From the NCBI GenBank assembly GCA_963727445.1, contig CAVSGI010000010.1:544001-608000 (forward strand): a stretch of 64,000 nucleotides of DNA, in the 5' to 3' direction. A model generated the notes under the pieces. That model ran no database searches and was not told where the DNA came from. It saw only the letters and a list, made by a program, of their open reading frames with translations. Of this stretch, positions 7,564 to 10,862 are shown one piece after another (position 1 is the first letter of the stretch; each line of letters starts with the position of its first letter). Source of the stretch: an uncultured delta proteobacterium. GTDB lineage: Bacteria; Myxococcota_A; Polyangia; Polyangiales; B10-G4. The position numbers were made by a program, and so were the translations under genes.

Positions 7564-8718
7564 TCAGTCGGGCAGTTGGTACTGGGCGCGGAGCTGGGTG
7601 AGCTGGCCTCGGGTCAGGGCCTGGCGCTGAGCGGCGTTCGCGTCGTCGCGGTCGACGTCGTCGCGGATGCGCTGGACGAGCTCGCCGAGCTGGCTTTCGC
7701 CGACGCCGATCTGTTCACAGAGCAGCCGCGCCTCCCGGCCGACCCCGGGCATGTGCAACCGGGCGATGCGCTGGACCCATTGCCGCTCCTCGAGGCGGTT
7801 CCAGATGGGGTGGCGGCAGGGAAAGCGACGCCGCTCGGGGACGCCGTCCAGCACGTGGCGCACCTCGTCGATCGTGCGCATCGCCTCGAGCGCATCGCGG
7901 GCGTCCTGACCTTCGCGGGGCCCGTACGCGTTCTCGCATCGGAAGTCGTAGGGCCCGGGATGGAGGCAGGTGCGGATGTCCTTCATCCACCCTTCGATGC
8001 GATCGAGTCGGGTGTAGAAGCGCTGGATCCTCCCGCGGATCGCCTCGTCGGGTCCCTCCCACCGATCGAAGCCGTCGCAGAGCTGATCGAGGAGGCGGCG
8101 ATAGCCGCCGATCGCGCTCGCTTCGTTGTAGCCCTGGCGGATCATCTCGTTCACGTCTTCGCGCGTGCTGCTCTCGCTGCTGCACACCGCCGGCGCCCGT
8201 CCCTGCGGCGGCAGCTCCACCTCCCGGCGGATCTTGGCGAGGAGCGCGCGATAACGCGCGAGCACCGACACGGACTCGGTCAGGGTCTGAAGCTCGGTGA
8301 GCACATAGGGAGGCGGCGGCCCCCCGGCGGCCGGCGCCACCCCCAAACCCGCGCCCGTTCCCGTTCCCGCTCCCGCTCCCGTTCCCGCTCCCGCTCCCGT
8401 TCCCGCACCCGTTCCCGTTCCCGTTCCCGTTCCCGTTCCCGTTCCCGTTCCCGCACCCGTTCCCGTTCCCGCACCCGTTCCCGTTCCCGTTCCCGTTCCC
8501 GTCGCCGTTCCCGTCGCCGTTCCCGTTCCCGTTCCCGTCGCCGTTCCCGTTCCCGTTCCCGTCGCCGTTCCCGCACCCGTTCCCGTTCCCGCACCCGTTC
8601 CCGTTCCCGTTCCCGTTCCCGTTCCCGCCACCGCCTCCGAAGTCGCCTCCGTCTCCGTCGCGGCGCCGCCGCATGCCGGGAGCCACGCGAGCAGGACGAG
8701 GATGCTCAACCGGCCCAT
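7564..8718 (-). CDS. Lipoprotein with a long Thr-Gly linker and a Cys-containing helical domain
   Basis: Start [16 protein letters not shown] (lipobox) at 8718, overlapping the kinase stop; (TG/AG)n linker; C-terminal domain resembles the kinase ectodomain. Confidence 0.8.
8348..8629. repeat. Hexamer tandem repeat (CCCGTT)n encoding a Thr-Gly linker
   Basis: About 46 near-identical hexamers with CCCGCA/CCCGCT/GCCGTT variants. Confidence 0.95.
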
Positions 8719-10862
8719 GGCCTCAGCCGATCGATGACCTCGCGGAAGCTGCGCTGCGTCTGGCGCAGCGCGCCCTCGGTGTCGTCGAGGGTCTCGAGGA
8801 ACCTTCGCTCGGACTGGCGCAGCGCGCCGATGTCGGTGCCGAGGCGGGTGCAGATGCGGTTGCGCAAGGTCGTGACGCGGCCGGCCGCGGCGCCCGAGTA
8901 GGTGTTGCCAGCGTCTTCGAGGGTGCGGAGGCGGCTGAAGACCGGGGCGTTGCACGGGAAGGGGCGGCGGCCCTCCTGCACGCCGGCGAGGCTGCGGCGC
9001 GCGTCGCCGATCGCGGCGCGCACGTCCTCGGCGATCTCCGTCGGCTGATTCGACGAGACGGTGGAGCGCGTCATCTCTTCGGCGCGGTCGAGGGTGCGGG
9101 CGATGGACTCGAGGTCGCGGCGAACCTCGGGTGGGGTGTTCTCCAGGCGCTCGAAGGGCTCGCAGGTGCGCTCGACGGCGCCGCGGAGGCGCTGCTGTTG
9201 AGAGACGACGATGGGGACGTCGCTGGGACGGCTCATCGCCCGCACGCCCGAGCCGTCGCAGAGGGGAGGGCGCCGGCCCTCCCCGATCCCCCGCACCGCG
9301 GAACGAAGCGACGTGATCCGTTGGAGGAGCGCGTCGATCTCGTGGTTCTGCGCTTCGTATTGAGCGATCTGCGCGCGGTACTGCGCGCGCGTCGCCTCCG
9401 GGAGGGCAGCCGCGGCGGCCGGGGGGGCGGCTGCGGGCGCGCTCGGCGCGGCGGTTGGAGCCGCAGCCGCGCCGGCCTGCTCTGCCATGGCGCTGGGATT
9501 CGCTTCCCGGCCGCGGCCTCGCCTGCCGCCCATCGCGGTCGACGGGTGCGGGGGCGGAAGGGGCAGGTCGGGCGGCAACAGCGACGCGGCGTCCATCGAA
9601 GCGGCGCCCGCGTCGCTCACCTCTGCTTCGTCGGACGCGGGCGCGATCACCGGCTCGGGGATCGTCGCCACCTCGCTCGGCGCGGCCGCCATCGCGACCT
9701 CGTCCCCCGAGTCGTCCGCGTCCCCGCCGCCGCGCGTCACGACCCACATCGCGCCACCCCCGGTGAGGACGGCGAGGAGGAGCACGATCGCGCCCAGGAG
9801 GTAGAAGAGCCCGCGGCTCGGCGCGCGCGCCACCGGCGCCGCCTCGGGGGTCGCCCCCCGCGCCACCGACCACGCGTGGGGCGTCTCCGGGTTGGGCAGC
9901 GGCGCCGTCTGCTCGGCCGACGCGCCGTGGGCGATGAGGGCGGCCGCCTGGGCCGCTTCGAGCTCGCGGGTCATCGGCACGGGACCGCGCCGCGTCTCGG
10001 CCATGCTCGGCTCGTGGCCTTCGAGGGCCTGCACGAAGCTTCTGGCGTCCGCGTAGCGCTCCTCGGGATTCTTGGCGAGCGCCCGCGCTACCGCGTAATC
10101 GACGTGCGGCGGCACGGACACCCTGGCCCCGAGCGGGGGCGGCGGCGCGGTCAGGATCTTCACCATCAGCGCGCTCATCGTTGGCGCCTCGAAGGGGGGC
10201 GCGCCCGCCACCACTTCGTAGAAGATCGAGGCGAGGGCGTAGATGTCGGTGCGGTGATCGAGGACGGATCCGCTCGCCTGCTCCGGCGACATGTACTGGG
10301 GCGTCCCCATCGCGACGCCCGACGCCGTGAGCCGCTCTTCCGTCGCCTCGTCCATCATCTTGGCCAGGCCGAAGTCGAGGATGGTCGCCCGCTCCCCCTC
10401 ACCAGGGACCTTCTTGAGGAAGACGTTCGCCGGCTTGAGGTCGCGATGCATGATGTTCTGCTCGTGCGCGGCGCCGAGCGCGCTCGCCAGCTGCTTCATG
10501 AGCGCCATCGCCTCGTCGAAGGGGAGCCGGCCCACGCGCTCCAGGCGCTGGGCCAGATCCTCGCCTTCGAGCAGATCCATCACCAGGTACTCGACGCCGT
10601 CGTCGGTGGAGGCGAAGTCGTGGATCGAGACGATGCCCGGATGACCGAGCGCTGCCAGGGTCTCCGCCTCGCGGCGGAAGCGCACCATCACCTGCTCGCT
10701 GACGCCGACGCGGTCGGCGCGGAGCACCTTCACCGCGTAGCGCTTGCCGGTCCGCGCGTGGCGCGCGACGTACACCGTCCCGAAGCCCCCCTGCCCCAGG
10801 GGACGCTCGATCCCATAGGTGCCCCCGAGGAGGCGGCCCAGGAGGGGGTCGGTCGCCGTCAC
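8706..10862 (-). CDS. Membrane Ser/Thr protein kinase (Pkn2/Hanks type)
   Basis: [38 protein letters not shown]; one TM helix; C-terminal ectodomain. Confidence 0.95.

Follow-up and report, generated by a model that had tools for sequence, protein, structure and literature searches.

A Hanks-type receptor kinase and an exported paralogue of its ectodomain probably form a conserved receptor-partner pair in Polyangiales

Results

The receptor kinase gene and its overlapping partner

The window analysed here is a 64,000-nucleotide stretch of an uncultured delta proteobacterium of the order Polyangiales (assembly GCA_963727445.1, contig CAVSGI010000010.1, positions 544,001 to 608,000 of the forward strand), in which two overlapping genes on the minus strand encode a Hanks-type Ser/Thr receptor kinase and a putative lipoprotein that carries a second version of the kinase's ectodomain. 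An earlier, sequence-only reading of these genes had described a 13-bp gene overlap, an unrecognised shared domain with four matching Cys that looked like two copies of one unit, and a ~90-residue Thr-Gly tether on the lipoprotein. It had proposed a trans-envelope signalling pair in which the tethered domain acts as ligand, co-receptor or decoy for the inner-membrane kinase, perhaps sensing envelope spacing or self/non-self.

The kinase gene (8706-10862 of the window, minus strand; protein P0001, 718 residues) was given a GTG start codon because its homologues start at a roughly equal position. Its cytoplasmic kinase domain (residues 18-269; 10056-10811, minus strand) scores 157.5 bits against the Pkinase family, for which the cut-off is 31.7, and its catalytic motifs are intact, namely the Gly loop (23), AVK (43), HRDLKPAN (139), DFG (163) and GTPQYMSPE (186). 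A hydropathy scan predicts a single transmembrane helix (residues 352-376; 9735-9809, minus strand), the peak of which is also present in homologues of the kinase. In the predicted topology it is followed by an extracytoplasmic Ala/Pro-rich linker of 114 residues that is probably disordered (9393-9734, minus strand; 96-142 residues in homologues) and by the ectodomain, here called the K domain (228 residues, 491-718; 8709-9392, minus strand), in which Cys535, Cys567, Cys637 and Cys671 are invariant. By domain score, motifs and its single membrane helix P0001 is a Hanks-type receptor kinase, with putative autophosphorylation activity; no kinase substrate was found in this analysis.

The partner gene (7564-8718, minus strand; protein P0002, 384 residues) begins with an ATG at 8718 and overlaps the kinase stop by 13 bp, as first described. 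Read by eye, its N-terminus contains a short signal peptide with a hydrophobic run that is followed by the lipobox LPA-C16 (8671-8718, minus strand), with Gly at +2 and Glu at +7, which marks P0002 as a putative lipoprotein. The 120-residue linker that follows includes a 94-residue tract of Gly, Thr and Ala only (residues 31-124), in which the Thr-Gly sequence is encoded by 45.7 copies of the 6-bp tandem repeat CCCGTT (8354-8627). The tether is therefore present at about the length originally read, but its proposed role is weakened, as the repeat tract is confined to this genome and the homologues seen do not share it. The C-terminal domain of the partner, here called the L domain (248 residues, 137-384; 7567-8310, minus strand), has six conserved Cys. 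Its third Cys pair, both members of which are invariant, lies in a partner-specific insert, C-x-x-PGPYD-x-R-C-ENAYG (residues 251-266; 7921-7968, minus strand), that is absent from the kinase copy.

The K and L domains are paralogues of an unrecognised helical family

The relationship between the two domains is recovered by BLASTP (E 6e-07, 27/101 identities), by Smith-Waterman alignment (score 101 versus 36.0 +/- 6.0 for shuffled sequences, with none of 2000 shuffles reaching the score) and by profile-profile alignment (probability 99.9, E 1.2e-32, 223 columns). The four Cys of the kinase copy align with Cys in the partner and are invariant in all 13 rows of the joint alignment (A1), and because of this invariance we infer that they form disulfides, the expected pairs being 535-567 and 637-671 in K and 179-214 and 301-334 in L, where the insert would add a pair 251-261. 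These comparisons bear out the shared domain with its four matching Cys, and by them the two domains are paralogues, the K and L copies within one genome being 17-29% identical (about 22%). The internal repeat is less even. In the kinase copy only 4 of 1000 shuffles reach the single-sequence repeat score and the two halves align at the profile level (probability 94, E 1.2e-07, score 44, where 30 column shuffles reached at most 13.9). In the partner copy 549 of 1000 shuffles reach the score, and its halves align more weakly by profile (probability 49, E 1.7e-04). The two-copy unit thus holds for the kinase domain by sequence and by profile, whereas for the partner it fails at the single-sequence level and is weak by profile.

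The domain family proved to be as unrecognised as it had first appeared. No Pfam family scored above its cut-off for the proteins of the window, for 24 partners or for the 32 K and 33 L aligned domains; no NCBIfam match was found for nine proteins at E 0.01; and PDB sequences compared with the joint profile gave a best E of 0.076, none above the cut-off. The ESM Atlas returned no usable match for either domain, a result that indicates neither novelty nor absence. Both domains are modelled as all-helical (predicted local distance difference test score, pLDDT, of 94.1 for K and 93.7 for L; predicted template-modelling score 0.84). A Foldseek search gave no match at E 0.001, and its top rows were the periplasmic sensor domains PilJ, McpS and TorS (best E 0.011). 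A VIA fold search gave Z values of at most 10.5, which are within the background for helical bundles, as are the longest alignments, those to McpS (Z 8.5, root-mean-square deviation (rmsd) 7.3, 200 residues) and to TorS (Z 7.6-7.7, high rmsd, 213-215 residues). McpS, TorS, PilJ and Adeh_2942 appear similar to the K and L domains in size and in their two-module all-helical plan, with no significant match, and in modelled architecture the domain looks like a helical bimodular (HBM) sensor. Membership of the HBM family itself (PF16591) was rejected: 1 of 32 K members matched at E 0.029 and none of 33 L members did, both results being below the cut-off. Known HBM domains are located between two transmembrane helices, and this topology was also rejected for the present domain, which has one transmembrane helix, a long linker and a free C-terminus.

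When 1.84 billion representative sequences were searched, the 13-row profile retrieved 77 clusters at 50% identity. Among the 89 proteins classified, which probably include a few spurious marginal matches, 37 are of the K type (23 with an attached kinase, 13 that are fragments and 1 lipoprotein) and 52 are of the L type, none of which carries a kinase. The named carriers are Polyangiales, Sandaracinus or unplaced Myxococcota, and all those seen are metagenome-assembled genomes. In a scan of the order 29 of 401 genomes matched, 25 of them strongly (best E < 1e-40) and spanning five families; the weak matches in G089 and G364 were treated as noise, and G160 (a kinase, E 1e-05) was excluded from trees and counts. 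A scan of the phylum with the K profile (401 genomes) gave only two weak matches outside the order (E 6e-05 and 6e-04). Because genome samples are incomplete, a domain that was not found need not be absent. The genome of the window holds no further paralogue of the domain, and the locus is single-copy. Two proteins from the protein collection, which gives no genomic context, depart from the usual forms: P0058 is a lipoprotein with a K-type domain and no kinase, preceded by a Cys-rich N-terminal module described below, and P0049 has a similar N-terminus and an L-type domain. The K-L pairing may have been reused here between two exported proteins.

The pair is linked, co-inherited and old

The kinase gene is followed directly, on the same strand, by the partner gene in 23 of the 25 genomes with strong matches, across five families, and in the two exceptions (G049 and G108) the contig stops at the kinase-partner junction. 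The adjacency of kinase and partner is thus conserved, and the same order is seen at the three metagenome loci long enough to judge (L099, L100 and L101). The catalytic domain is in frame with K in 21 of 24 main-clade rows; of the rest, two are contig ends and one is a frame break. The latter lies between the membrane helix and the ectodomain of the G014 kinase (L014, 7200-7400 region) and is an assembly error or the sign of a decaying gene. In 18 of 22 pairs the first candidate start codon of the partner lies between -13 and +2 nt relative to the kinase stop, and in 14 of these it lies at -4; because stop and start codons overlap the two genes are likely to be co-translated. In the genome of the window such an arrangement is rare: a kinase-domain match at E 1e-15 is found in 241 open reading frames (ORFs), of which 127 combine a membrane helix with a C-terminal part of at least 100 residues, and one of the 127, the present kinase, has a neighbour that resembles its own ectodomain. 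Divergent kinases with this ectodomain also occur at L071, L072, L073 and L074 (genomes G236, G020, G115 and G160), and G236 and G115 hold the canonical pair elsewhere.

A tree of 51 domains, from which G160 and the half-domain of G154 were left out and in which midpoint rooting served for drawing only, separates 27 K and 24 L domains by one branch (support 99/96) into mirrored subtrees, a topology by which the pair is the product of one old duplication. Mean identity is 34% among K domains and 33% among L domains, and K-K and L-L similarities are correlated (r 0.89, 23 pairs). The divergence of the partner follows that of the ectodomain when the catalytic domain is held constant (partial r 0.73, 21 pairs) and hardly that of the catalytic domain when the ectodomain is held constant (partial r 0.17, 21 pairs). 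This pattern of divergence fits K-L co-evolution.

A predicted complex between the K and L domains

Structure prediction of the K+L heterodimer gave a score of 0.74 (0.74, 0.73 and 0.74 in the individual runs), compared with 0.01 for the best of three controls. The score mark, which the pair passes, was attained by 116 of 157 solved complexes and by 2 of 215 mismatched pairs, a calibration that is only rough because our own alignments were used. The runs have at least 88% of their contacts in common, with a partner pLDDT of at least 85. In domain numbering, the lowest-error contacts join D203, D204, E206, G207, R210 and Q211 of K to I57, R58, Q59 and G60 of L, corresponding to full-length residues 693-701 and 193-196, respectively. 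The predicted binding cores are therefore the motif D-D-T-E-G-A-L-R on the last K helix (residues 693-700; 8763-8786, minus strand) and the motif I-R-Q-G on the partner (8131-8142, minus strand). Each side of the core is conserved in its own paralogue, with D203 (0.88), E206 (0.96), G207 (0.71) and R210 (0.83) in 24 K rows and R58 (0.75), G60 (0.92) and E89 (0.75) in 24 L rows, and the same columns are mostly less conserved in the other paralogue: E206 falls from 0.96 to 0.33 in L, and G60 (0.92) and E89 (0.75) are replaced by S (0.54) and A (0.33) at the corresponding K columns. In addition, R58 is present in 17 of 17 pairs in which K has G207 and is missing from 5 of the 6 pairs that lack it; the other clade has Q or E for G207 and T, A or Q for R58. 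The complex model supports direct binding of K to L.

Besides the roughness of the calibration, several observations weigh against a dedicated, directly binding pair. Close cousins of true partners also pass the score mark (10 of 12 colicin pairs), and the G207/R58 pattern reflects one clade split and hence one event. Only the core is conserved above background, the interface as a whole being at background (0.48 versus 0.48 for K, 0.46 versus 0.48 for L), and the best-conserved motifs, N-x-P and N-x-W in K and the Cys insert and W-x7-Q in L, lie outside the predicted interface. A mirror-tree correlation is expected for linked genes and may come in part from the shared fold, and the catalytic domain is under evolutionary constraints different from those on the ectodomain. 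The divergent long-branch kinases G236b, G115b and G020 have no partner gene downstream. The partner lipoprotein of G154 (L070, 8445-9125) speaks for the pair: it has lost exactly one repeat in frame, with profile positions 3-90 joined to 203-239, yet it is still linked and has kept helix 1 and Cys pair 1 together with the loop region and the final helix. Its deletion may, on the other hand, be an assembly error or mark a decaying gene.

Partners occur in putatively lipidated and non-lipidated forms

With signal types read by eye, the 25 partners comprise 11 of the lipoprotein type, 12 that are non-lipidated, all from one family (f9), and 2 that lack an N-terminus. The tethers of the lipoprotein type are unrelated in sequence, being either disordered and rich in Pro, Ala, Thr, Glu and Ser or coiled-coil-like, and in the 12 f9 partners lipid and tether are replaced by a cleavable-type signal peptide and a Cys-rich module of ~100 residues. 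A lipid anchor is thus not common to all partners, and nor is the Thr-Gly sequence. The Cys-rich N-module (RDC...C-x-x-WNAC; L060, 8107-8421, and 11 other f9 loci) has no Pfam match, and a kinship with the repeat halves was rejected (profile probability at most 0.5). Across the class a related N-module stands at the start of other lipoproteins, where it is joined to DUF4384, PPC-like or unknown domains (L124-L144); in family f28, for instance, this is so in 16 of 71 genomes. The N-module has the look of an undescribed, mobile carrier.

Neighbouring genes

No third gene recurs across the families, as judged with an ORF filter that retained 346 of 3153 frames; because Arg-rich frames were discarded, genes within long shadow frames may escape it. 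A conserved response regulator was not found across the loci, nor was a promoter- or terminator-like site in 7300-11400 of the window. Upstream of the kinase, and on its strand, lie a single-domain response regulator (10904-11272, minus strand) at a distance of ~40 bp and, further upstream, a trypsin-like protease (11323-12126, minus strand); no recurrence of either was seen at other loci. On the other side of the pair are a transposase (DDE_3 with helix-turn-helix domains; 1273-2316, minus strand), presumably IS630-like, an S-adenosylmethionine decarboxylase (2417-3388, minus strand) of PF01536, which we take to be the eukaryote-type family, a POT/MFS transporter (3491-5203, plus strand) and an amidohydrolase (5217-6863, plus strand). 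In G001, too, the decarboxylase and the amidohydrolase are close to the pair, and G023 has a similar amidohydrolase. In eight f9 genomes only (loci L055, L056, L057, L060, L061, L062, L067 and L068), the kinase has a neighbour that is presumably sulfotransferase-like, a name taken from its motif; this is probably local synteny.

Discussion

Conserved linkage, co-inheritance and a complex model that passes together argue that the K-L system is real and that its two proteins are probably a conserved, direct receptor-partner pair. The original proposal of a ligand, co-receptor or decoy stands on the same three grounds. We consider it fairly probable that the two genes form a self-contained signalling module in which binding regulates the kinase directly, the partner being the cognate ligand that sets kinase clustering. 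In the proposed mechanism, a single duplication of an ancestral kinase ectodomain segment produced a copy that evolved into an exported protein. Kinase and partner would be co-translated, exported and folded with disulfides, and would then bind directly and asymmetrically, the R-x-G loop in repeat 1 of the partner being predicted to dock on the D-x-x-E-G-x-x-R helix in repeat 2 of the kinase. The partner, held by its membrane lipid or oligomerised by its N-terminal module, would concentrate and hence activate the kinase, whose output would signal that an exported and folded partner is within reach. With ~100-140 probably disordered residues between the ectodomain and the membrane, signalling of the piston type is unlikely and a proximity mechanism is plausible.

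Hanks kinases are switched on through dimerisation of their catalytic domains, and how their sensor domains drive this step is described as unresolved (PMC3601408). A 1:1 heterodimer would not by itself cluster kinases, which counts against the clustering step. The K domain carries a weaker R-G-S loop (0.58, 0.62 and 0.54) at the position of the partner's R-x-G, so head-to-tail self-association of K is conceivable, and L, which lacks the acceptor helix, would end such a chain. If the two proteins bind, we give even chances to activation of the kinase by its partner, which is favoured by analogy with QseG, described as binding and stimulating QseE (PMC12691602). A cap or decoy role is a close second choice, and mere localisation of the kinase is improbable.

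The conserved motifs outside the predicted interface can also be read differently. Both domains might sense one third ligand in parallel, the exported copy serving as sink, shuttle or co-receptor with no need to contact the kinase, much as the PknH sensor domain occurs in lipoproteins (PMC4118811) or as a periplasmic binding protein feeds a helical bimodular sensor. The nearest long structural matches, McpS and TorS, are ligand-sensing domains, which agrees with this view, yet their Z values are those of the helical-bundle background; the conserved motifs, moreover, differ between K and L, whereas a common pocket would need shared ones, and the heterodimer model passes. We regard this explanation as unlikely.

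A second alternative, which needs binding, is that the pair measures envelope width, a tethered outer-membrane lipoprotein reaching the inner-membrane kinase only at the right spacing, in the manner of RcsF-IgaA or QseG-QseE. None of the 11 lipoprotein-type partners has Lys or Asp at +2 when read by eye (in M. xanthus Lys occupies this position in 8 of 12 inner-membrane lipoproteins; PMC3222651), lengths are narrow (92-136 residues from N-terminus to domain in the 10 measured, alongside the kinase linker range given above), and QseG is described as spanning the periplasm without detaching (PMC12691602). However, lipobox and tether are absent from 12 of the 23 partners whose N-terminus could be read, a pair of long disordered linkers is ill suited to measuring distance, and the +2 sorting rule is weak and taken from another order. 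With homologous linkers unrelated and 12 genomes lacking lipid and tether, the trans-envelope, spacing-sensing part of the sequence-only reading is weakened, and we hold a ruler to be quite doubtful.

Even less probable is an intercellular or self/non-self signal, in which the partner, released from the cell or exchanged, would trigger the kinases of compatible cells only. Myxobacteria reportedly exchange outer-membrane lipoproteins, 12 genomes encode non-lipidated secreted forms, and the mean identities within K and within L leave enough divergence for specificity. Against this, the locus is single-copy with no cassette or allele arrays, the predicted binding core is conserved across the five families, the trees look vertical, nothing points to export beyond the periplasm, and residue +7 of the partner is Glu, whereas Ala is described as sorting M. 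xanthus FibA outward. The self/non-self suggestion is accordingly not supported. The pair could also be a neutral relic, left when the 3' end of the kinase gene was duplicated locally and serving no shared function, which would suit the G014 frame break and the G154 partner that lacks one repeat. This explanation is largely refuted, and extremely unlikely, given that at ~22% K-L identity each copy is under separate constraint and that linkage is retained across five families in changing neighbourhoods.

Both halves of this arrangement have precedents. In the QseG-QseE(-QseF) system of Salmonella and E. coli, an operon-encoded exported lipoprotein likewise binds the helical periplasmic domain of an inner-membrane kinase (PMC12691602), binding that in our case is modelled, and the fold matches to the partner model include a PDB chain that corresponds to the QseE sensor (9m08, residues 38-172; Z 9.3, rmsd 3.9, 122 aligned). 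QseE, however, is a histidine kinase that works with a response regulator, and QseG is portrayed in the same source as a protein with a globular N-terminal part and a C-terminal bundle of two helices, not as a copy of the sensor. In the present pair the ectodomain stands on a long linker and has a paralogue as its partner, and about half of the partners are non-lipidated. A QseEGF-type three-component system was rejected for this pair, with its Hanks-type kinase and no conserved response regulator. The two-disulfide sensor domain of the mycobacterial Hanks kinase PknH also occurs in lipoproteins and secreted proteins (LppH, LpqA, LpqQ and LprH; PMC4118811, PMC3601408). Its proposed ligand is a small molecule held in a cleft, in contrast to the protein partner predicted here, and the passages on PknH in these sources describe neither a dedicated adjacent gene pair nor direct kinase-lipoprotein binding. 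Membership of the PknH-like sequence family was also rejected, as no such Pfam match is listed for any K or L member at E 0.05-0.1. The V-shaped cleft fold of the PknH sensor does not occur among the fold matches listed for the all-helical K and L models, an outcome that does not argue against such a fold. In RcsF-IgaA and NlpE-CpxA, likewise, a lipoprotein signals to an inner-membrane regulator, either across the periplasm or inside it (PMC12691602); these systems differ in having unrelated domains and phosphorelay outputs and in the absence of paralogy between sensor and partner. The K-L pair thus belongs to neither of the two precedent families, and in the literature searched, outside the scope of which lie most subscription journals and supplements, we found no account of the domain or of a Hanks kinase with an exported paralogue of its ectodomain.

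The pair defines an unannotated domain family and supplies a candidate protein ligand, amenable to testing, for the bacterial Hanks kinases, the signals of which were called largely unresolved in a 2012 review (PMC3601408). Since genomic context names a candidate ligand, the model names the residues, and the domains are small, soluble and confidently folded, activation of a myxobacterial receptor kinase becomes testable at the bench. The duplication suggests a route by which a receptor may acquire a private partner, its own ectodomain being copied and then exported. A bolder extension, to which we give a rather slim chance, is that the partner is a true protein ligand born from the receptor ectodomain, which in the non-lipidated clade would diffuse or be released from the cell, would act like a growth factor or cytokine between cells and would give each lineage a private, co-evolving channel.

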